Of a DNA stretch of 64,000 nucleotides, positions 26,932 through 37,600 are shown in pieces. Position numbers and translations under genes: made by a program. Positions within the stretch are counted from its first letter, which is position 1; each line of letters starts with the position of its first letter. The notes beneath the pieces are model-generated. The model searched no databases. It was not told the DNA's origin and saw only the letters and a list, made by a program, of their open reading frames with translations. This DNA comes from Pseudomonas phage vB_PaeM_GXNNA8, in sequence record PV400810.1. One strand, given 5' to 3'.

Positions 26932-29900
26932 TTATTTACCTCTGTAGAGTTTAATGGCTTGGCGAGTGATCTGGAAACCATACTCATTAGCAACCAGCTT
27001 GTTCCTCAAACTGAGTACCATTCGGTTAAACATCCCTTTAAAGCTCGACTTCACATCAATTACAATCCCACTGGCAGTCTTAAGCGGTCTTTCCATGATA
27101 CGACCCACAGTGGCTTTCATCTGGTTCCCAATGACATACTTATCCGCATTGGTACTCGGGTCTAACGACTCGATGTAGAACGTAATGAATGCCTTACCTG
27201 GACCTAACATGGGACGATTAAGATTGAACATCGTGGAAATGGCATTGTTCTCGACACCGGTTCCTTCCACCAACCCTTTCCGTTTCGTTTCCTTATCCTT
27301 CTGAACAATGAACGAACGGAACGAGTCAGACATCTTGTCTAAGGGAGAGTTGTACCGAACATCGATGTGTACGATCTTTCCATGATGCTTCGAACGGATC
27401 TGTTTGATACCGAGTTTGTTGATGTCTGCTTCGAGCTCAGGAAGCTCCTCGCCCTCCACCAAGTGAGGCTCTTCGATATCACATAAAATCGTGTCCTGTT
27501 CGACGTAATCTCCTACCTTAACCCGCATCACCAGGTTGTTTGACACGTCCTCGGCAAACCGACTGGGTTTAATGAATGGGGTACGTGCTTCCATGGCCAA
27601 TTCTTTCGAAATTGCAATAGAGTCCTCGTACACATCCTGGTCTTCCACCATAACGATCTGGCACATCTTACCCATCTTAACCCCGACCTGCCCTGGGCAG
27701 AAGGGGTCTCGACCGAACCAGTTTTCATCCCAGCCGATGACATCTCCCTTACGGAAGGTATCTCCGACCTTCAGATCCGTGGTACGGTTATGAGGATGGT
27801 ATTCCCCACTGGCTTCTCCAATCACCAACCCCAAGGGGTACGAGTCCGTTGTTCCATCCTTGTATTCGACGAGTAAGCGATCGTTCTCCACTTTAGTGAC
27901 CTTACCATCTTCAGCGGCTACTTTGCTGTAAAGATCGGAGGTCCGGTGGGCCAGTACGTTCTCGTAACCCGTTCTCAGGGTAACGATCTCGTAGTTCTTA
28001 GCCATCACTGCTTGAGAGGCCTGAGTCGATGTGAATACTGCTCGCTTCACATCGTCATGCGTTCCACCGTACATCAGGTTCATGGTAACCGAACCGTCAC
28101 CGGTAGGGGTACGTTTGTTCTTGGGATCAACATTGCCTCGGAAATCAGCGATACCCGGATCAGAGGTGGTGTAGGTCACATACCCCACTTTACCACTGTC
28201 CTTGTTGGCTTCACTGATGACCCCTTTGTAACTCTCCAGCTGAGTCCGTGCGCGTTTGACCATGGTGATTTCACTACGACCACCTGTTCCACCAAACGTC
28301 ACTTCCTCTTGGTCCTTCACTTGGTGAACCGGATTCACTTCTTCCACCAAGTTCGTAGACCGGTCAGTACCAATGGCAATAATAACCGCATCCGGGTTAA
28401 AGTCCAGTTTGTGTTTACGCCCTTTCCCTTTATTCCGGTATTGACGAATGGACTTTACAAATTCCGTGTAGAGATGACCTGCGAAGCGTTCATACCCTAC
28501 AATGCGCTGCTCTTCAATCTCCACCTCGTGCCGACTGTAATCCGTTTCCAATGCCTTAGCTGCATCAATCAGCAAGTAATGGAAGTCTTCAGACAGCTTC
28601 ATCTCTTTCAAAAGGTCTTTCGTAATGGGATCAATAAAGAGATCGAAGAGGTTCTTCATTTCCTGGAACTGAGATGGACGAACCCGAGGGTCTCCCATCA
28701 ACGCACTCCAGATACTGTTATTATTCAAATCACTCCGACTGAAGTTACTGATGTTGTTCAACTTCGGCATTCCACCAAAGATCAACGTGGTGAGCTTCTC
28801 CCGACGGTTAAAGATCAAGTATTCGTCATTGAACTGAATCGCGTATTCATCCTCCGTCAATTTAGGGCGAGTCCCTACGGGTACCGAACGCGTCGTGGCT
28901 TTAATCACCCGCAACAGTTCATCAATACCGAAGTAGAAGCACAGGACCACTCCCAACGGAAACGAATACCCGCTGATGTTAATCACCACGTGTTCCAAAG
29001 GCGCTTTACGAACATCAATACCGAGCAAGTCTTCAACAGTACCGAGTTCCTCTTCCCCTTTGTACAGGTTACCGTAATCATCAATGATCAAAGGTAATCC
29101 GTCCTTTACCCCAATCAAGAACCGATCAGGGCGGGTATAGGCTTTGAACTCAGGGTGGAGTTCCAGGAGATCCTTCAACCGGAAGTCCAATACCAACCCG
29201 TCGACAGTAATGTACTTGTACTGACGGGCCAGAATGCTGTAAATCCGAGGGGCTTTAAGGGAGCGATCCCAAGTACTGCCTTTAGTGACCGTATACCCTT
29301 TCCGTTTACTCTGGAGGGAGATTTGCTTCACCATGAACGTAGAGAGGTTATCCACCATCTTCGGACTACGACTCACCATGAGCTTACGGTCATAATAGCT
29401 CGACAGCACCACTTCCCGGGGACTGATCTTCCGGAAGGGTTTCTCCCGACGTTGCAGTTGCATGTGTTGCTTAACACCATCAATGACGTAGGTGCCGTCT
29501 TTCAGCACCGTAGGCAGCCGAGTATGTACAGTGACCTGATCACCATTGACTTCGTGCAACTGAATGCTGTGGACCTCGTAACTGCCTTCTACGCTGACGA
29601 CCTTCTCACGCCGGTAGTCGTTCATCGCAAAGCCAGCGTTCTGAAGACCCAACACCATTCGACCAATATCCCGGTGTAAAAACTTCTGAGGATATTCGAT
29701 CTTGAGGGATTTGGCACGACTCCGCAACATGCTCTCATCCAGTACGGGGAGAAACTCACCTTCAATCTCTCCACCCAGGTCTTTAACCTCTTCGGGTTTA
29801 ATCTGAATGAACTCTTCGAACGTTTGACCGTTCTCCATTTCAATGTGTTGATAACGGGTCGCTTTACGCATGAAGAAATCATGTTCAGCTACCGTCAGCG

Positions 29901-31251
29901 TACCTTCCTTAGCCCGCTCCTCTAACGCCCGCTTTACACCACTCTCAGGCGTCTTAAACACATTCTTGTTGGTATTGATCTCGGTTTGGACTTTCTCCAC
30001 CTCCAGCAGTTCATCATCTACCGGCGATGTCCACTCTTCAAGATTTGAATCAGCACCTCGTTCTCCCGCTGTGTCTTGCTCTTCGTCATGTGCCTCGCCA
30101 GGTCCTTCACTTCGGCTGAAAACATCAAGGATAGAACCAGCAGGACGATCAGCACGGGGAACCGTGCCCGAGCCAGTATGGTCTCGGGTTTCTGGAAGAT
30201 TGGATGTTTCTTCTTCTTCTTCTCGTGACGTTCCCGCAGCCACTTGGTCAACGGTACCTTTCTCTCCGGCAATTGGGATGACATTTTTCGTTTCCTCTTT
30301 AATGAGTACATTCTCAGGAACGCCTCCACGAGAAAGATTCATCAAAGCCAAATAGAAACGTTTAACCGCATTATGGCGGGTCAATGTCTTCAGACTTTCA
30401 AACTCTTTCCGAGCAGAGGGGTAGGTTTTCTCGTCTTTAGGATTTGTCTCATCTAACCAACCCTTCAACAGCCCCAGTTGTACTACAATGACTTTACTTT
30501 GAGACGTAAAGAGGATATGCAAATCCTTATACGCCTGGTCAGTGAGTTTACCGAACAAACTGAACGAATACTGGCCAAACAGGAACCCCAGTAGGTCCAA
30601 CAGCCAATAGCAGTTCTCAGCCTTCGTACTCTCCAGCATATTGCGCATCAGGACAGGATGGCCGTCCTTAAACCCATCAATAAACCGCCCGTAGTCTTTC
30701 TCAAGCTCAACCAGGGACGGTAGGTTCAACGGCAGGTCAATCCGCATATACTGCCGACGCACCCCTTTCTCGGCTTCTGCATTGATGTTCTCAATGAGCA
30801 GGTGCATCATGTTGTAGTATTTTTCATAATTCACGAAAATACTCGGACGGTAAACGAACCCCTGAGGAATCATCCCGTAGTTCTTAACGACTAGGACGTT
30901 CTCTTTGTTGTACACCGTGCTGATCTCACGCACCCAGCTGTACATGTAGTGACTCGCCCGGTACGCCTTAACCGCCTTAGGGTAGTCATAGGCGACTGTA
31001 CGCCCATGCCCCATCACCGGCTTATACCCGTCCCTTACAAACTCAATAAAGACCTCTTTAGGGAAGTTACTGATAAACGCTTCACTACTACCCGGTCCCT
31101 TTTCATTAACCGTCTTCGGTACGAAGTGCAGTAAACTCCCCTTAGGAAGGATCACTTCACCAATACCCAGGACTTTAGGGTTTACAACGTCTTGTTTCTT
31201 ACGCAGCACAAAGTGCTTAAAGAACTCGGAATACGTAATTGGATTGCTCAT
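26932..31251 (-). CDS. DNA-directed RNA polymerase beta subunit, N-terminal fragment (split multisubunit RNAP; 1439 aa with insertions)
   Basis: GGTGGRSEITM ~ E. coli RpoB GPGGLTRERAG; VYEDSIAISKEL ~ NFEDSILVSERV; ASGIVIDVKSSFKG ~ SGTVIDVQVFTRDG; ends before the GDKxxGRHGNKG region; its ATG overlaps the stop of beta-prime exon 2. Confidence 0.65.
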   Translation of the reverse strand: MSNPITYSEFFKHFVLRKKQDVVNPKVLGIGEVILPKGSLLHFVPKTVNEKGPGSSEAFISNFPKEVFIEFVRDGYKPVMGHGRTVAYDYPKAVKAYRASHYMYSWVREISTVYNKENVLVVKNYGMIPQGFVYRPSIFVNYEKYYNMMHLLIENINAEAEKGVRRQYMRIDLPLNLPSLVELEKDYGRFIDGFKDGHPVLMRNMLESTKAENCYWLLDLLGFLFGQYSFSLFGKLTDQAYKDLHILFTSQSKVIVVQLGLLKGWLDETNPKDEKTYPSARKEFESLKTLTRHNAVKRFYLALMNLSRGGVPENVLIKEETKNVIPIAGEKGTVDQVAAGTSREEEEETSNLPETRDHTGSGTVPRADRPAGSILDVFSRSEGPGEAHDEEQDTAGERGADSNLEEWTSPVDDELLEVEKVQTEINTNKNVFKTPESGVKRALEERAKEGTLTVAEHDFFMRKATRYQHIEMENGQTFEEFIQIKPEEVKDLGGEIEGEFLPVLDESMLRSRAKSLKIEYPQKFLHRDIGRMVLGLQNAGFAMNDYRREKVVSVEGSYEVHSIQLHEVNGDQVTVHTRLPTVLKDGTYVIDGVKQHMQLQRREKPFRKISPREVVLSSYYDRKLMVSRSPKMVDNLSTFMVKQISLQSKRKGYTVTKGSTWDRSLKAPRIYSILARQYKYITVDGLVLDFRLKDLLELHPEFKAYTRPDRFLIGVKDGLPLIIDDYGNLYKGEEELGTVEDLLGIDVRKAPLEHVVINISGYSFPLGVVLCFYFGIDELLRVIKATTRSVPVGTRPKLTEDEYAIQFNDEYLIFNRREKLTTLIFGGMPKLNNISNFSRSDLNNNSIWSALMGDPRVRPSQFQEMKNLFDLFIDPITKDLLKEMKLSEDFHYLLIDAAKALETDYSRHEVEIEEQRIVGYERFAGHLYTEFVKSIRQYRNKGKGRKHKLDFNPDAVIIAIGTDRSTNLVEEVNPVHQVKDQEEVTFGGTGGRSEITMVKRARTQLESYKGVISEANKDSGKVGYVTYTTSDPGIADFRGNVDPKNKRTPTGDGSVTMNLMYGGTHDDVKRAVFTSTQASQAVMAKNYEIVTLRTGYENVLAHRTSDLYSKVAAEDGKVTKVENDRLLVEYKDGTTDSYPLGLVIGEASGEYHPHNRTTDLKVGDTFRKGDVIGWDENWFGRDPFCPGQVGVKMGKMCQIVMVEDQDVYEDSIAISKELAMEARTPFIKPSRFAEDVSNNLVMRVKVGDYVEQDTILCDIEEPHLVEGEELPELEADINKLGIKQIRSKHHGKIVHIDVRYNSPLDKMSDSFRSFIVQKDKETKRKGLVEGTGVENNAISTMFNLNRPMLGPGKAFITFYIESLDPSTNADKYVIGNQMKATVGRIMERPLKTASGIVIDVKSSFKGMFNRMVLSLRNKLVANEYGFQITRQAIKLYRGK

Positions 31252-31430
31252 ACCTCAATATCCTCTAAGCCGCTCGTCGCTGCTTTAAACATAAAGAGAA
31301 TCGGTTCATTGATCGGATCATACAAAAACCGACCTGTACCACTGATGTAATACTCCCGTTTCCCAAAGAGTTCGTAGGCCTGTTGTTTGCTGTCTTCCGC
31401 TACAACAGAATGGCTCGACAATTGGTCGCC
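31248..31430 (-). CDS. RNAP beta-prime N-terminal fragment, exon 2 (60 aa: GDQLSSHSVV...ISGTGRFLYDPINEP...)
   Basis: has no start codon of its own; joined to exon 1 it completes DYFD-GDQLSSH (cf. NADFDGDQMAVH) and continues like RpoC LSPANGEPIIVP...; TGA overlaps the beta ATG. Confidence 0.6.
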   Translation of the reverse strand, partial: GDQLSSHSVVAEDSKQQAYELFGKREYYISGTGRFLYDPINEPILFMFKAATSGLEDIEV

Positions 31431-33253
31431 CGCATTGGTCAGTCCATGCTAGGACCCGGCACGCTCAGGTGCCTGCCTGTCTATTAAACAGGGCCAGACT
31501 ATATCTTGACCGTAGGGAATAGGTTTATTCCCCCTTAGGTCTCCTCCACTTCCACCCCCTTCCTTGGTAGGTGTACAGGGTCATAACTCCCTTAGTCGTT
31601 GAACTTTACGCGTGGGGTCTAACACCCGGTAGCGTCTTAGCGGCTGATTGTCCCTTGTTTACGACCCTTAGCGTTATTGGTTAGCGTAGGTCAGGTCTGC
31701 TGTTCTTTCTACCTTTCGGTCGCATTCACGCTTACTGTTTCCAGTTACGTTGTAGCCAACAGACTTTTGTGAACTCCCAGCAATTCAGAGGAATACGGTC
31801 TAGGACTTTCGTGCCTAGCCGGACTAAGTGATGGATATAAACTCGTTAACGTGTGAGTTTCTTGAAACGATAACGGGAATGGAGCAACTTACCTTCTCGT
31901 GCGCAAACGATAACGGTACGGGGATTGGCTCCGGTGATTCGGGTAACTGCATCAACGCCATACACAATCGACGTCTCCTGGGTTACCGAATCAAACATTT
32001 CATACACAGCTGTAGCAGGGTGCATCTTGCGCCGGATGCATTCCAGTTCGTATTCATTCAAATCAGGCCAAGGGGTCTCGTCAGACTCCCGCTTGAATTG
32101 AAGGTCTTTAAAGGCGGATCTCGGGTTGGTGTTACTCAGGGACGTCAGGATGCCTGTTGTCCCTACCTGTGTTGCTCTAGAGGCCTCCGCCAATGAATTA
32201 TACACCGTGATTTCACCGGTGAAGACATTCCGGGCAAGGATCTTCTTACCCACAGGGGGTTTATAGTCCCAGATCTCTTGGAAGTCACGTTTATCTCCCT
32301 CCCGACGAAGAACGTACCTGTTCTTGTACACCGAGCGAGGACGTTTGAGCACCAGACCAATACACCAAGAATCCACCTCCATGGTTCTGGCAAACTCATT
32401 TTGACTGACGTACTTAAAGACTTGACCTAATTCCCTGTCAAAAACCTCCAGGGGATTATTGTCCGCTCTCGCTTCTTGATTGTTGCACGCTTTGAAGGAG
32501 TTGTCCTTAGCGGTAACCCAAATCAAGTTAAAGAGCTTGAAGTTCATCTTGTTACCGTCATTATGATCGACCATTAGCTTGGGGTAGCCCTTAGGCGGCT
32601 TACCGAAGGTCTCCGCCAGTAGCCGGTGGACATACTTGCGTTCATCCCCACTGACCACATCCAGTCGAACAAAGGGGTAGAAACTGTCCACAATGACCTT
32701 ACCACCCAGATACGGTGGGTAAAGATTCTTTCTAAGTGTTCGGTATACCACACCGTCTCGGTTGATTGCGTTGAGTTCAAACCCAGGGATGTAGTAGTAC
32801 CCAGAGAGTTCAGGGTAAGGGATGCCCTCTTCAGGATAGACCAAGTAAAGGTTATCCGCTGCAAAGTTTTCTGCATCGTCATCCAGAAAACCTACTTTCA
32901 CCTGTTCCCATTCAGAGATAGGAAGGTGGAACTTTCCTTCTCCATGGAGGATCATTAATCCCAGTTTGATCTTAACCAGTTCGTCTCCATCGCCCCGTGC
33001 GATGAAGAACGTGTTCCCGTCTGCCATCCGATGGACCGGAACATCCGTCTTATCAGTGACATTGAAAACTGTGTTGGTTGTAGACAACACGTATTTCTTT
33101 CCAAAACACGTTAACATCTTTACAACTCCTTATGGTCGAATGCGAACACTTCCGCATACAATAGGAGTTGTATAGTGAGTTTATATCATGCATCACTATC
33201 TAATCATGGTCACTGTCGAGCAAAGCTTCTCTAGAGGGGTCTACGGACATGGC
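31431..33253 (-). mobile_element. group I self-splicing intron (1823 nt) with HNH homing endonuclease ORF, inserted in the beta-prime catalytic motif
   Basis: minus-strand RNA contains R element GUUCAACGACUAAG (31591-31604), S element AAGAUAUAGUC (31497-31507), a P-like AAUUGCUGGGA (31775-31786) and a P9-like hairpin GGCACCUGAGCGUGCC; exon 1 ends in U, the intron ends in G; splice points inferred from restoration of the conserved protein motif. Confidence 0.7.
31846..33117 (-). CDS. intron-encoded HNH homing endonuclease (423 aa)
   Basis: VHRLLAETFGKPPKGYPKLMVDHNDGNKMNFKLFNLIWVTAKDN matches the HNH_3-type motif; own SD AAGGAG 8 nt before the ATG. Confidence 0.75.
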   Translation of the reverse strand: MLTCFGKKYVLSTTNTVFNVTDKTDVPVHRMADGNTFFIARGDGDELVKIKLGLMILHGEGKFHLPISEWEQVKVGFLDDDAENFAADNLYLVYPEEGIPYPELSGYYYIPGFELNAINRDGVVYRTLRKNLYPPYLGGKVIVDSFYPFVRLDVVSGDERKYVHRLLAETFGKPPKGYPKLMVDHNDGNKMNFKLFNLIWVTAKDNSFKACNNQEARADNNPLEVFDRELGQVFKYVSQNEFARTMEVDSWCIGLVLKRPRSVYKNRYVLRREGDKRDFQEIWDYKPPVGKKILARNVFTGEITVYNSLAEASRATQVGTTGILTSLSNTNPRSAFKDLQFKRESDETPWPDLNEYELECIRRKMHPATAVYEMFDSVTQETSIVYGVDAVTRITGANPRTVIVCAREGKLLHSRYRFKKLTR

Positions 33254-34645
33254 ATCGAAGTAATCGGGATGGACTTCACGTTTAGGGAACCGTTTACAGG
33301 TTTCCCGTACACCCCAATCAATCGGATTACGAATGACCCGCTGACTCGCATTGGTGGTGGTACGTAGGTTAACCTTAGCCGGGAAGATAGAGCCAATTCC
33401 CGTAATGGGATACCGGGTTTGTCCCGTAATCTGTTCTTCGATGACACTGTGGCAACTCAAGTAGAAGAGTTCCATGTAGGTGATAGGTTTCACCCATTTA
33501 CGGTCTTTCCCTTGAGGGAGATCGTTGATGTCATGGAGAACACACACATCAGTCCCATCATCATAAATGAGGGCTAAGTATTTCCACTCAATGACAATGG
33601 GTTTACTCCGTAGGGAGGGATCAGCAAACCCGTTGAAGAGTTTCATTAACCCGGTGGCGGTGGTCCATTTCTCTACCACTTCAGGGGAGACTTCAGCGTA
33701 TTCGTATTCCAGGGTCTTGGTATTCACCAGCTTAGCGGTTTGAGAGCTGGGGGTGAAGATGTTGGAGAGGTAACCGTTGGTTAACGCATTGATGCAGACA
33801 TAAGGGAAGTTCAGTAGGGCTTGGTAGAGCCCCATGTCCGCAGAGTTAGGACCTACACCGTCGTCGAAGTCTAAACGTGTCCTGGAGACTTTACGGGCGG
33901 TAATGACATTCCGGGTGCTGTTGTGAACCCCCCGGGTGGACATACGACGCTGGAGAACACCCCCTTTCCCTTGGAGTAAACCAAAGAGGTAATTATCCAA
34001 TTCCAAGAAAGCATTCTGTACCCCCCACCGAACGGTATCGTAAAGGGGGTTCAGGGCATCTTCCTTATTCCCGAGGATCACCCTCACCCGGAACATTAAG
34101 GCGCGGTAGAATTCAGTGATCTCAGGTTCGGTATGGGAACCATCCGGATTGAATTGGATATCCCTGAGACCCGCGGGGATGACCAGGACCTTATCCGTTA
34201 ACGCTGTCTTACGGAATTGGTTCGCCAGTTCTACCCGTTGTTTGCGTTTATGGGAGGGGGTCAGGGAGAAGACAGTTTCATCGAAGTGTTTCAGGAAGAA
34301 GGCGAAACCCTTTTCCCCTTCCAGGATGTTCGATTTTATGAAATCCTTCAATTCGGGATCCCATACCGCGTATTCCGATCCTTTCAAAATTGAATGATAC
34401 AGACTTTTGATCTGTATAAGGGCTTTTAGGTAAGTGGGATTGAAGATGGGAAGTTTAACGTCGATATACGCTTCCGTGTTATCGCGTTGTTTACTACCCA
34501 GTTTACCGAAGATGTCAAGGGAGAAGAGACCATCATCATTGAGGTTCTGAGTCATCCCTTCAAACGAGTCCGTAGACGTAATAGGTTTAAAGACACCCGG
34601 AACAATCGTCCGGGGGTCTAAGAGGGTAATGTTAGTCGGTTTCAT
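33254..34645 (-). CDS. RNAP beta-prime N-terminal fragment, exon 1 (464 aa; unspliced ORF runs on to a TAG at 33200)
   Basis: NDDGLFSLDIFG ~ RpoC ERDGLFCARIFGP; VLVIPAGLRDI ~ VLPVLPPDLRP; RRMSTRGVHNSTRNVI ~ GKRVDYSGRSVIT; TRYPITGIGSIFPA ~ NRAPTLHRLGIQAF; ends ...HPDYFD at the intron. Confidence 0.7.
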
Positions 34646-34675
34646 ACGGTTTCCTTATGCGGGAGTGCATTAACA

Positions 34676-37600
34676 ATGGCGGATAATACATTCGATGATT
34701 TCGATTGGGGAGAGGATCCCTTTACTGGGGATATTGATTTCGATACCGATTTCGATGGGAAGAAACCGGGGTTCATTCGTTCGGTAGCAACCGGGTTTTT
34801 GTCAGGAGTAGTGAATCAGACAGTAGGGGACACCGATGCTCGGTTGAACACCCTGAAGATGGTCCTCCCTAAGACCTGGGGGACTGCCTTTACGACGGCG
34901 TCGGATATTAACCGTCGTCGGAGAGAGATCGTAGACGAACTTAAACGTGAAAGCTACGACGCAGTCGTGGACCTCCAATACTTGGCTAAACGGGGTGGTG
35001 ATAAGTTAGGTAAAATAGCTCCTAATAAGATCACCGGGGGTGTGGCCAGTGGGCTGACTCGGTTTAGTCAGAATGACTTCAGCAGTTGGAAGCCGTATAC
35101 GTCGTCGGCGAGTGACACCCCGTCCATGGAAAATGTGGACGAAAATGATGTGAAAGACCTGCTGGGGAGTGAAGACGCCAACTCCCTGTTAGAGCGGGAA
35201 ACGGTCATTGGGGTGGGTGAAAGTATTACCGCCATGATGACCGAAGTAGGTGGCCGCACCATTGGGGGATTGAATACCCTGAACCTGAGTATTGGGCGGA
35301 GTAACCAACTGCTGGAACAAATGGTGAATTACCAACGTAAAGTTCAATTGAGAAATGATACCCTCAAGGTGAACCTGTTGGCACGTTCCTATTTGACCAG
35401 CGCGAAGTTCTACAAGTTCATGGAAGCCAGTAATCACCGGATGATTGCTGAACTGAAGACCATTGCCCTGAACTCCGCTAAGAGTGATTACGAAAAGACC
35501 ACCCACAGTCAAGCGATGCGTAAGAGCATTCGGGAATCGGTCTTCAATACGGTTAAAGGCTCCTTTGGAGGAATACGGGAGTTTATTAACGAGCGGTTCG
35601 GTAAGGATGCGCGAGGGGACGGAATCCGAGGTGCAGGTGACCTGATTGGTGCTATGCGCATGGCGGCGGAGATGTCGGAAGGCATGCCGCTCAACGTAGG
35701 GACCATGGTGGGTAACGTTGCAGCCCAAATGTTCATTAGCAACCTCCCCCGGATGATCAATTCCCGGAAAGGGAAGGAATACGTTGCTAAGTTCAAGAAA
35801 CAATTCCCGGAACTGGGGAAATGGGCGGATAACGCGTACGCGCAACTCACGGACTTGGGTAACGTAGCGTCGTATAACCTCAGTAATGCGGAAGGGATGG
35901 TCAATACCCTTTCGGAATACCACAACTGGGGATCCTCGTTTGACGAGGATGGGGACTACGAACAATACCTCAGTACGCTCCGTTCAGGTCAAAAGCCGTT
36001 GGGTAAAGTGGAATGGACGGTTATTAATACCCTGAAGAAAGGGGCGAATAAAGGCATGGCGGGGTTGTTGGATGAGATGTACCAACCCACCGGGAGTCGT
36101 TACAGCCTAAAACGTCGGGGGTTAATGGATGCCCACGAACCGGAGATCTGGAACAAACAGTCCTCCCGTACCCTGAATGAAGTGATTCCCGAACTGCTCA
36201 GTCACATTCACTTGTCGATTGAAAAGATCCGTACAGGGGATGATACCCTTAAAGCATCGAGTTATGACTACGTGCGGGGTAAGTTGGTCAGCCATAACCA
36301 AAAGGTAGCAGATACCTTTAACCGGGTGATGGATAAAGACCAATTCAAGTCCCAAGCGGATACGTCCCTTCGATTGGTGGATTCCATTGACCCCAATAAG
36401 GAATTGTCCAACGAAGCCCGCCGTGTATTGGCGATGCAACTGGTTCAGAATGCGGATAAACGGAAAGGGTTCAGTCCGTACCTGTACATGAACTTGGAGA
36501 CCAAAGGAGTTAACCGTCAGGTAGCGGATGAAATCCGGGAATTGTTCCAACGGAATTTTGATATTACCCCGGAAGCCTTTACGGCCTTTAAGGAGGGCAG
36601 TACCCTGGACCGGGCGAGTGCTATTGCTCGTCTTCCCACAGAACAAGCCCGAGAACGCGCCGCTAAGTTAACGGAACAATCCAACCTCCTGGGTCGGTTT
36701 ATGCCTGACATTGCCGAACGCGTCGATATGTTGCGTTCGTCCGGGTATTACAACGTCATGAAAGAAGCTGGCATCATCAAGTCTGAAAATGGCCACGATG
36801 AAGTCAATATGGACACCTTCCGGAACGTCCTCCAGTCCTTCATTGACAACCCTGACCGTGCTATGACGTATGACAACCCTCTGGAAGAAGCGGTGCGTAA
36901 GACCCGTTCCTTTGGCAGACGAGGAAGAGGACGTCGAGACGCCGGAGGTGTGATTGCGGCTGAGAACGCTCAGTTGAATGAAACCCTTCAGGGTGTACGG
37001 GAAACTTTGGATAAACTCGGGGCGCATATTGAGCAGGGAGGTGTAAGTCGTTCGGGTCTTACGGATCCGTCTTCTCTGTTCACCGCTCTGAACGACCAGG
37101 TGACCCAAGGGAACAGCCTGCTGGGTAAACTGGTAGAACTGGGAGGGAACCGTAACGATATCCTCACCAAGATCTTGGAACGTCAACCCTACGAGAAAAC
37201 CACCCCTGAAGCTGAAGAGGTCATTCAACAACAGAAACGGAGTATTCTGGAACGGATTAAGAGTACGTCGTTTGGGGATCTGTTTAATAAGGGAATAGAC
37301 AAACTCCTGGATAACCAACCGTTGGTACTGGGTGGCTTACTGGGTGGATTGGCGGGTATGGCGATCTACAACCCGAAAGGCGCTGCGTTGGTAGGGGGTG
37401 GCTTGGCGCTAGGGATGGCGTATAACAAGTTGCGTGCCAGAGCGGCTGCTCGTCGAGCCGAGGACACGGAAGACCTGTACGAAGAAGGGTCCGATACCCC
37501 GATCCTTGAATCCTTTAAACTCTTTAAGGGTGAGTATCTGGATATGCTCACCGGGAAGATCATTCAGGGGTGGGATCAGATTACCGGGAGTATTAAAGAC

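Follow-up and report, generated by a model that had tools for sequence, protein, structure and literature searches.

How a phage can build a complete RNA polymerase (RNAP) active site from a gene that ends inside the catalytic motif is the question raised by the virion RNAP beta-prime locus of Pseudomonas phage vB_PaeM_GXNNA8 (PV400810.1), analysed here within a window of 64,000 nucleotides (nt). On the minus strand, the gene for the N-terminal beta-prime subunit stops between two of the catalytic aspartates and is followed by an HNH endonuclease gene, a short reading frame that lacks a start codon, and the gene for the beta subunit. The region (3.5 kb) is 97.1-97.8% identical to its counterparts in seven genomes of the Pseudomonas phage EL group, with a figure of 97.6% for the relationship to EL, EL being a nucleus-forming jumbo phage of the genus Elvirus. 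The gene of this EL-like jumbo phage is very probably interrupted by a mobile group I intron of the phage type IA that carries the HNH gene. This reading is carried by the exon boundaries, a covarying fold, a wobble pair in helix P1 at the splice site, a terminal G, an intact HNH gene and a sequestered ribosome-binding sequence. A first-pass annotation made by a model from the letters alone had also placed a group I intron with an HNH gene inside the catalytic motif, between Asp and Gly, and both uninterrupted homologs and covariation bear this out. The main parts of the locus are as follows.

33203..34645, minus strand: exon 1 of the virion RNAP beta-prime N-terminal subunit gene, 481 codons, ending ...LDSDHD
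31431..33202, minus strand: complete group I intron, 1772 nt, with boundaries taken from uninterrupted homologs and six independent same-site introns
31846..33117, minus strand: HNH homing-endonuclease gene, 423 aa, ortholog of EL gp185
31248..31430, minus strand: exon 2, 60 codons (GDQLSSHS...LEDIEV) plus the stop codon TGA
26932..31251, minus strand: virion RNAP beta gene, 1439 aa, homolog of phiKZ gp178 (tblastn E = 4e-68)

The 3' boundary agrees with the first-pass annotation: the start-less frame at 31248..31430 begins GDQLSSHS, the intron-terminal G (omega-G) stands at 31431, and the exon 2 stop overlaps the beta gene start in an ATGA (31251..31248). Exon 2 has neither an ATG or GTG start codon nor a Shine-Dalgarno (SD) sequence, and its frame opens just six codons upstream of the splice site. 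At the other end, the last exon 1 codon is GAT (33205..33203) and the true 5' splice site lies directly after U33203, so that the UAG stop of the 481-aa open reading frame (ORF; listed by the program as 33200..34645 on the minus strand, stop codon included) consists of intron bases 1-3. An intein was ruled out because this stop codon sits at the junction, directly after exon 1, and the intervening frame is closed. Predicted ligation of 34645..33203 to 31430..31248 yields a 541-aa protein whose catalytic motif reads D-S-D-H-D/G-D (here and below a slash marks a splice or insertion point), the intron being inserted after the codon of the second catalytic Asp and before that of the Gly. The junction ...AAUGCG/GGCGAC (intron end/exon 2) gives DSDHD-GDQL in a register identical to that of about 98 uninterrupted homologs, which read ...YFDAMSVDPSREAGLDSDHD/GDQL... 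across the junction in the alignment and run through as ...PDYFDAMSVDPSREAGLDSDHDGDQLNSNS... The predicted spliced RNA is ...GACCAUGAU/GGCGACCAA at the junction (as cDNA, GACCATGAT/GGCGACCAA), and the predicted junction-spanning peptide is ...EALLDSDHDGDQLSSHSVVAEDSK (DSDHD-GDQLSSH).

The first-pass annotation had ended exon 1 at 33254, which is 51 nt too early, and had arrived at an intron of 1823 nt, a product of 524 aa and an active site formed as DYFD-GD. U33254 also ends a GAU codon, with which the 3-nt guide GUC described below could in principle pair, and DYFD-GD superficially resembles DFDGD. The 17 residues that this placement would remove, AMSVDPSREALLDSDHD, lie upstream of the true 5' splice site and are coding because about 98 homologs carry them uninterrupted; all of these (~98/98) keep AMSVDPSRExxLDSDHD between YFD and GD, which refutes the site at U33254. 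The P1 extension helices adjoin 33203, not 33254, and against EL the ratio of non-synonymous to synonymous substitution rates (dN/dS) of exon 1 is 0.03 for codons as far as 33203. Moreover, AR9 beta-prime aligns with a D-x-D-x-D spacing that is absent from D-Y-F-D-G-D, and DYFD lies outside the motif. Splicing after U33254 thus has next to no probability, and the intron and product lengths are corrected to 1772 nt and 541 aa.

The identity of the host gene comes from its family. A homolog search with the 524-aa version of the product returned hundreds of matches, mostly of 538-541 aa, that span the full query, and in distant homologs the motif is GGDFDGD. The profile built on this family matches the AR9 nvRNAP (non-virion RNAP) beta-prime subunit (7S00/7S01, E = 3e-11), with DSDHDGD aligned to SGDYDGD of AR9 beta-prime, and gives weak matches to bacterial and plastid beta-prime/gamma subunits. 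The homolog profile was needed for this result, as a search of solved structures with the 524-aa product as a single sequence found nothing relevant; Pfam likewise has no match for the spliced beta-prime fragment or for the 1439-aa beta protein. The beta gene has a dN/dS of 0.01 between the window and EL. Exon 2 differs between the two phages by 3 synonymous and 0 non-synonymous changes and, judged from these substitutions, evolves under purifying selection.

The intervening 1772 nt contain a group I ribozyme. A local E-value scan placed RF00028, the Rfam group I intron model, at 31477..31849 on the minus strand (46.7 bits, E = 3.4e-10). The 97%-identical copy in EL scores 51.1 bits with the same model, and independent introns at the same site score 63.9 (L003), 63.8 (L083), 54.4 (L084), 48.5 (L208) and 68.3 bits (L005); L numbers are the labels given to loci in this analysis. 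Core elements P (AAUUGCUGGGA, 31785..31775), R (GUUCAACGACUAAG, 31604..31591) and S (AAGAUAUAGUC, 31507..31497) are present on the strand on which they had been predicted. Their place in the fold, from the RF00028 alignment and an RNAalifold consensus, is given below.

31442..31821, minus strand: ribozyme core
31821..31796, minus strand: P2
31792..31787 with 31547..31542, minus strand: P3
31783..31777 with 31647..31641, minus strand: P4
31774..31771 with 31653..31650, minus strand: P5
31764..31662, minus strand: P5 extensions
31635..31608, minus strand: P6
31597..31593 with 31501..31497, minus strand: P7
31592..31577, minus strand: P7.1
31573..31553, minus strand: P7.2
31541..31508, minus strand: P8
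31492..31476, minus strand: P9
31473..31458, minus strand: P9.1
31455..31442, minus strand: P9.2

The fold is maintained by covariation. Eight related cores were aligned from the guide sequence to the terminal G, and the fold comprises 92 pairs in 18 helices. Of the cells, 95.1% are paired, and sliding the partners by 1-3 columns lowers this to 36-47%; the paired percentage is inflated because the fold came from this very alignment, but the margin is still very large. Compensatory double changes occur at 49 of the 92 pairs, while the slid controls give 6-16 and shuffles 20 +/- 3. R and S were first folded as local hairpins because RNAalifold cannot draw the P3/P7 pseudoknot, and these hairpins were replaced by P7 before pairs were counted. 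P7 is invariant among the eight cores, and six of the seven pairs of P7.2 show compensatory changes. The presence of P7.1 and P7.2 puts the intron into type IA, which is typical of phages, an assignment that rests on established classification and not on the output of a tool. The core signature GTTCAACGACTA-N65-95-AAGATATAGTC is found in at least 120 viral contig stretches; ribozymes of this type are therefore very widespread in phages and by no means confined to RNAP genes.

The 5' splice site falls within P1, whose two predicted strands lie far apart.

33177..33205, minus strand: P1 5' strand, exon GAU (33205..33203) followed by intron UA, a GAU bulge, AGUGAUG, a CAU bulge and GAUAUAAACUC
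31822..31844, minus strand: P1 3' strand, GAGUUUAUAUC-CAUCACU-UA-GUC, with the guide GUC at 31824..31822

The exon-end GAU pairs with the guide GUC, which produces a U33203.G31824 wobble at the splice site, and the pairing is extended by UA/UA, a 7-bp AGUGAUG/CAUCACU helix and an 11-bp GAUAUAAACUC/GAGUUUAUAUC helix. The duplex energy (RNAduplex) is -24.9 kcal/mol, compared with -12.2 +/- 3.2 for shuffles, and P1 duplexes fall far under shuffled energies in five distinct same-site introns whose extension sequences are unrelated. The P1 architecture of the window recurs with different sequences in L003, L005, L083 and L084; in L005, which lacks an ORF, the extension is closed by a triloop. The segment ...A-GUC-CGG immediately before P2 is kept in all relatives, and its GUC pairs with an exon-end GAU in every one of these introns. 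The 3' strand begins 1 nt past the HNH stop codon, and the predicted P1 strands thus flank the ORF; the endonuclease gene therefore sits, as the pairing places it, in the terminal loop of P1, with the guide 1.37 kb from the 5' splice site. The first-pass annotation had put the ORF between the P1/P2 region and the core, whereas it lies inside the P1 loop and upstream of the guide. A pairing of exon CC with GG that appeared in the RNAduplex output clashes with P2 and is not claimed. The exon end AGUGACCAUGAU (33191..33214, minus strand) is nearly repeated in intron bases 6-18 (AGUGAUGCAUGAU), and the post-ORF strand CAUCACU could pair with either copy; similar echoes of the exon end, GUGAUCA and GUGAU, are found in L085 and L083.

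Group I splicing requires a U at exon position -1, and the codons at the insertion sites reflect this requirement. At the second Asp, GAT is used in all six distinct alleles that carry an intron, and the 40 distinct empty alleles are divided between GAC (22) and GAT (18). The first Asp is GAC in 39 of 40 empty alleles and GAT in Vibrio phage 2 TSL-2019 and phiKZ, where an intron follows it. Similarly, the third Asp is GAC in 33 of 40 empty alleles and GAT in VP4B and L207. The exon base at -1 is U in every intron-containing allele, the chimeric intron of PDCC-1 excepted.

The HNH gene is intact. As the first-pass annotation noted, it has its own SD, an AAGGAG (33131..33126) located 8 nt upstream of the ATG. 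The protein matches Pfam HNH_3 with 42.4 bits (cut-off 24.8), its core aligns with I-HmuI (1U3E) over the block VDHNDGNKMNF..NLIWVT, and the catalytic block VDHxxGxKxxFxLxNLxWVT is kept in nine orthologs, all of them intact. Homologs are present in the equivalent introns of Raoultella phage VB_ZK_P1, Shewanella phage FishSpeaker, Vibrio phage 2 TSL-2019, PDCC-1 and phiKZ (gp179). Upstream of the gene lies one further element.

33122..33171, minus strand: leader hairpin, ACAACUCCU...AAGGAGUUGU, which buries the SD of the HNH gene

The minimum free energy of the leader hairpin is -22.2 kcal/mol (z = -4.1), with 9 of the 10 bases of the SD window paired. Hairpins that cover the SD were found in all seven of the ORF-containing introns examined (the window, L003, L083, L084, L208, L050 and L206; z = -2.3 to -5.5), and their sequences differ. 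These predicted folds suggest that translational control of the endonuclease may be conserved. An SD-sequestering leader hairpin resembles the known translational control of the intron ORFs of phage T4.

Several observations weigh against a working, mobile intron. The Rfam scan proposed by the first-pass annotation gave RF00028 only in its local form: at gathering thresholds the whole window returned no match, the RF00028 cut-off being 50 bits and the score of the window 3.3 bits under it. Just 3 exon nucleotides pair with the guide, and a by-eye search for P10, comparing the 3' exon start GGCGAC with the CUUA 5' of the guide, found none. Long-read transcriptomics of phiKZ, in the conditions of that study, gave no evidence that the predicted introns of the phage are spliced (PMC10914365). 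Finally, the HNH gene has a dN/dS of 0.32 against EL, which shows relaxed constraint.

The score under the cut-off and the phiKZ transcriptomics would both fit a locus that does not splice, where a relic ribozyme accompanies an effectively free-standing HNH gene, beta-prime is a truncated 481-aa protein, and the 60-aa piece is made separately or not at all. The RNAP subunits of jumbo phages are also naturally split into several polypeptides, but the natural split of beta-prime falls after the DPBB (double-psi beta-barrel) domain, that is, after exon 2 (PMC7598289), and an unspliced gene would leave the third catalytic Asp missing from the same chain. Compensatory changes maintain the ribozyme helices across divergent phages, U at -1 is kept in the alleles that carry an intron, and exon 2 has no start codon or SD and yet no non-synonymous change. 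The absence of splicing is accordingly judged very unlikely.

The dN/dS of the HNH gene, ten-fold above that of the host gene, bears on a different possibility: that the intron splices and its endonuclease no longer drives homing, either because it is decaying or because it has another role such as interference with competing phages, as with PhiPA3 gp210. The intron is present in all 7 sequenced EL-group genomes, so few empty targets are left within the group, and gp210 of PhiPA3 confers a competitive advantage rather than simple homing (PMC11620839). However, the ORF is intact in every intron examined and the HNH catalytic residues are conserved, empty sites whose target DNA is nearly identical occur in many related phages, and ORF-less and ORF-containing versions of the intron co-exist, as expected of an active cycle of gain and loss. 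The loss of homing is considered unlikely.

If the locus does encode a mobile intron, guanosine-initiated self-splicing of the pre-mRNA would join exon 1 to exon 2, and the spliced 541-aa subunit would carry all three catalytic aspartates. Splicing would probably occur inside the phage nucleus, where ribosomes are absent, and the HNH gene would be translated from exported RNA. From what its homologs I-HmuI and PhiPA3 gp210 do, during co-infection the HNH protein may nick the conserved DNA that encodes DxDGD in relatives lacking the intron; repair would then copy the intron in (homing), or the nick would interfere with competitors.

The insertion site of the window, between the second catalytic Asp and the Gly, is not unique to this phage. 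It is occupied in several metagenomic phages and in phiKp_32, and the neighbouring Asp codons are occupied in phiKZ, VP4B and others. The metagenomic relatives that have independent introns at the same site encode host proteins 64-76% identical to that of the window. Each of L003, L083, L084 and L208 has an HNH ORF of 421-427 aa in its same-site intron, and the intron of L005 is about 460 nt long and without an ORF. Introns follow the first Asp in phiKZ, TSL-2019 and PDCC-1; the second Asp in the window and EL, L003, L005, L083, L084, L085, L208 and Klebsiella phage phiKp_32; and the third Asp in the Vibrio phage VP4B, L207, VB_ZK_P1 and FishSpeaker. Among the loci examined, every occupied position immediately follows the codon of a catalytic Asp. 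Of the 103 sequenced phages that have this segment of the gene, about 46 carry it uninterrupted. A class of truncated proteins ending in DHDG was considered as a separate site and rejected, as it represents the site of the window with an intron that starts with GG.

Introns at all three positions, in different nucleus-forming phages, have related ribozymes, the guide GUC and related HNH genes in common, and the codon before them is GAU except in PDCC-1. Neither ribozyme similarity nor HNH similarity tracks the insertion site: the ribozyme of L207 (third Asp) is 82% identical to that of L003 (second Asp) and 67% identical to that of VP4B (third Asp), and the HNH protein of L208 (second Asp) is closest to that of VB_ZK_P1 (third Asp). 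At the sequence level, this mismatch suggests site switching and module exchange. The three beta-prime Asp codons may tentatively be seen as a shared landing pad of one intron family that shifts between adjacent GAU codons, a proposal that is possible but on balance doubtful. Such a shift could proceed by reverse splicing with the minimal guide or by imprecise homing, and introns at neighbouring sites would recombine (compare the PDCC-1 chimera).

The intron of Photobacterium phage PDCC-1 (MN562221; L049:5431-7150) is a chimera. Its 5' splice site follows GGD with the codon GAC, which leaves a C at -1. From the 5' splice site through the HNH ORF and into the 5' half of P2 it matches the TSL-2019 type of intron; beyond that, through the remaining ribozyme to the 3' splice site (/QLN), it matches the VP4B type, and the crossover lies within a 17-nt shared segment of P2. 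Simple splicing would remove the YDGD codons, including those for two catalytic Asp residues. The intron scores only 38.7 bits with RF00028, and the exon is not present elsewhere in the genome. PDCC-1 contains either a real defective allele or an assembly error. In Aeromonas phage CF8 (MK774614; L210:2746-3000), the codons of the Gly and the third Asp are separated by an intervening sequence of about 255 nt, GGU/AAAAACGG...CACAUUG/GAC, which makes this a fourth position within the motif; Rfam gave no match to the sequence at E < 0.001. In the tblastn table, Aeromonas phages PS1, ACP1 and AhC3_1 look like CF8.

The closest known counterpart is the phiKZ gp180/gp179 locus, which has the same gene in the same order (endolysin-like gene, beta-prime N-terminal gene, HNH gene, ribozyme, short exon 2, beta gene) and the same catalytic motif interrupted. 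There, gp180 ends ...LGAD and is followed by gp179, the ribozyme (92.2 bits with RF00028) and a start-less FDGDTVSF... frame that abuts gp178. Unlike the intron of the window, that of phiKZ follows the first catalytic Asp (LGAD/FDGD), 6 nt upstream of the site used here; its HNH protein is shorter (357 aa) and a homolog at 25.6% identity, and its P1/P2 region is unlike that of the window. Introns in the phiKZ RNAP subunit genes gp55 and gp180, with the intron endonucleases gp56, gp72 and gp179, are cited in PMC11512511, and the phiKZ RNAP-gene introns are drawn in Fig. 7 of PMC5105663. A passage of a 2026 review (PMC13282480) cites the EL genome paper for introns. A literature search for Elvirus introns and for phage introns in the NADFDGD motif, which did not cover the EL genome paper, found nothing useful.

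The only experimentally studied case is PhiPA3 gp210. In PhiPA3, likewise a nucleus-forming Pseudomonas jumbo phage, a virion RNAP gene contains a group I intron whose HNH protein is a nicking endonuclease like I-HmuI (Birkholz et al. 2024, PMC11620839). That intron follows two conserved Asp codons and lies in the beta gene (gp211/209), whereas the intron of the window lies in beta-prime, and the sites differ. In the SPO1 DNA polymerase intron, I-HmuI is likewise an HNH nicking endonuclease encoded by a phage group I intron, and its HNH core aligns with that of the window. However, the HNH protein of the window has 423 aa, being extended at length on both its N- and C-terminal sides, as against 174 aa in I-HmuI; the match has an E of only 0.002, and the host gene is unlike that of the window. 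The td, nrdB and nrdD (sunY) introns of T4 have an IA-type core with P7.1 and P7.2, a looped-out endonuclease ORF and a hairpin over the ribosome-binding site that limits translation of the ORF, as in the window. In T4 the ORFs are placed in the loop of P6 or P9.1, and their products are nucleases of the GIY-YIG or other types, whereas the ORF of the window lies in the P1 loop.

A second intron site distinguishes the window from EL. The beta gene of the window is one continuous 1439-aa ORF with an empty site at about 28047..28050 on the minus strand (...GGTHDD/VKRAVF). EL has a 412-nt ORF-less insertion exactly there (L001:11654-12065; 40.5 bits with RF00028), and this insertion splits the gene into gp186 and gp187. 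By its description in PMC11620839, the site is that of the PhiPA3 gp210 intron.

Beyond the beta-prime start (34645), a divergent endolysin-like gene of 2543 aa starts at 34676 on the plus strand, about 30 bp away (34646..34675); the same closely spaced divergent layout occurs in EL, phiKZ and the metagenomic relatives. In EL, the public annotation of the locus includes no intron and no exon 2; gp184 is an 'RNA polymerase beta subunit' (481 aa), gp185 an 'HNH endonuclease' and gp186 another 'RNA polymerase beta subunit', and in the seven public EL-group genomes the beta-prime fragment is truncated at 481 aa with exon 2 unannotated or 'hypothetical'. The EL-group records are inconsistent, with small 'hypothetical protein' ORFs called within the ribozyme, and in Pseudomonas phage HHBS8_1 (PQ287644; L002) exon 1 is annotated as two overlapping coding sequences.

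As annotated, the virion RNAP seems to lack the third catalytic aspartate, and the predicted 541-aa product corrects that. Related phages were already known to carry elements of this kind, and the intron of the window is a new and precisely defined case. It adds to the few mobile introns of jumbo-phage RNAP genes a well-defined example with natural ORF-less and intron-less alleles; for one of these introns, that of PhiPA3 gp210, a role as a weapon between co-infecting phages has been demonstrated. Differing as they do at the PhiPA3 site, the window phage and EL form a natural pair for work on competition and homing. The three occupied Asp codons provide a lead, open to testing, on how a group I intron can move to a new insertion site.

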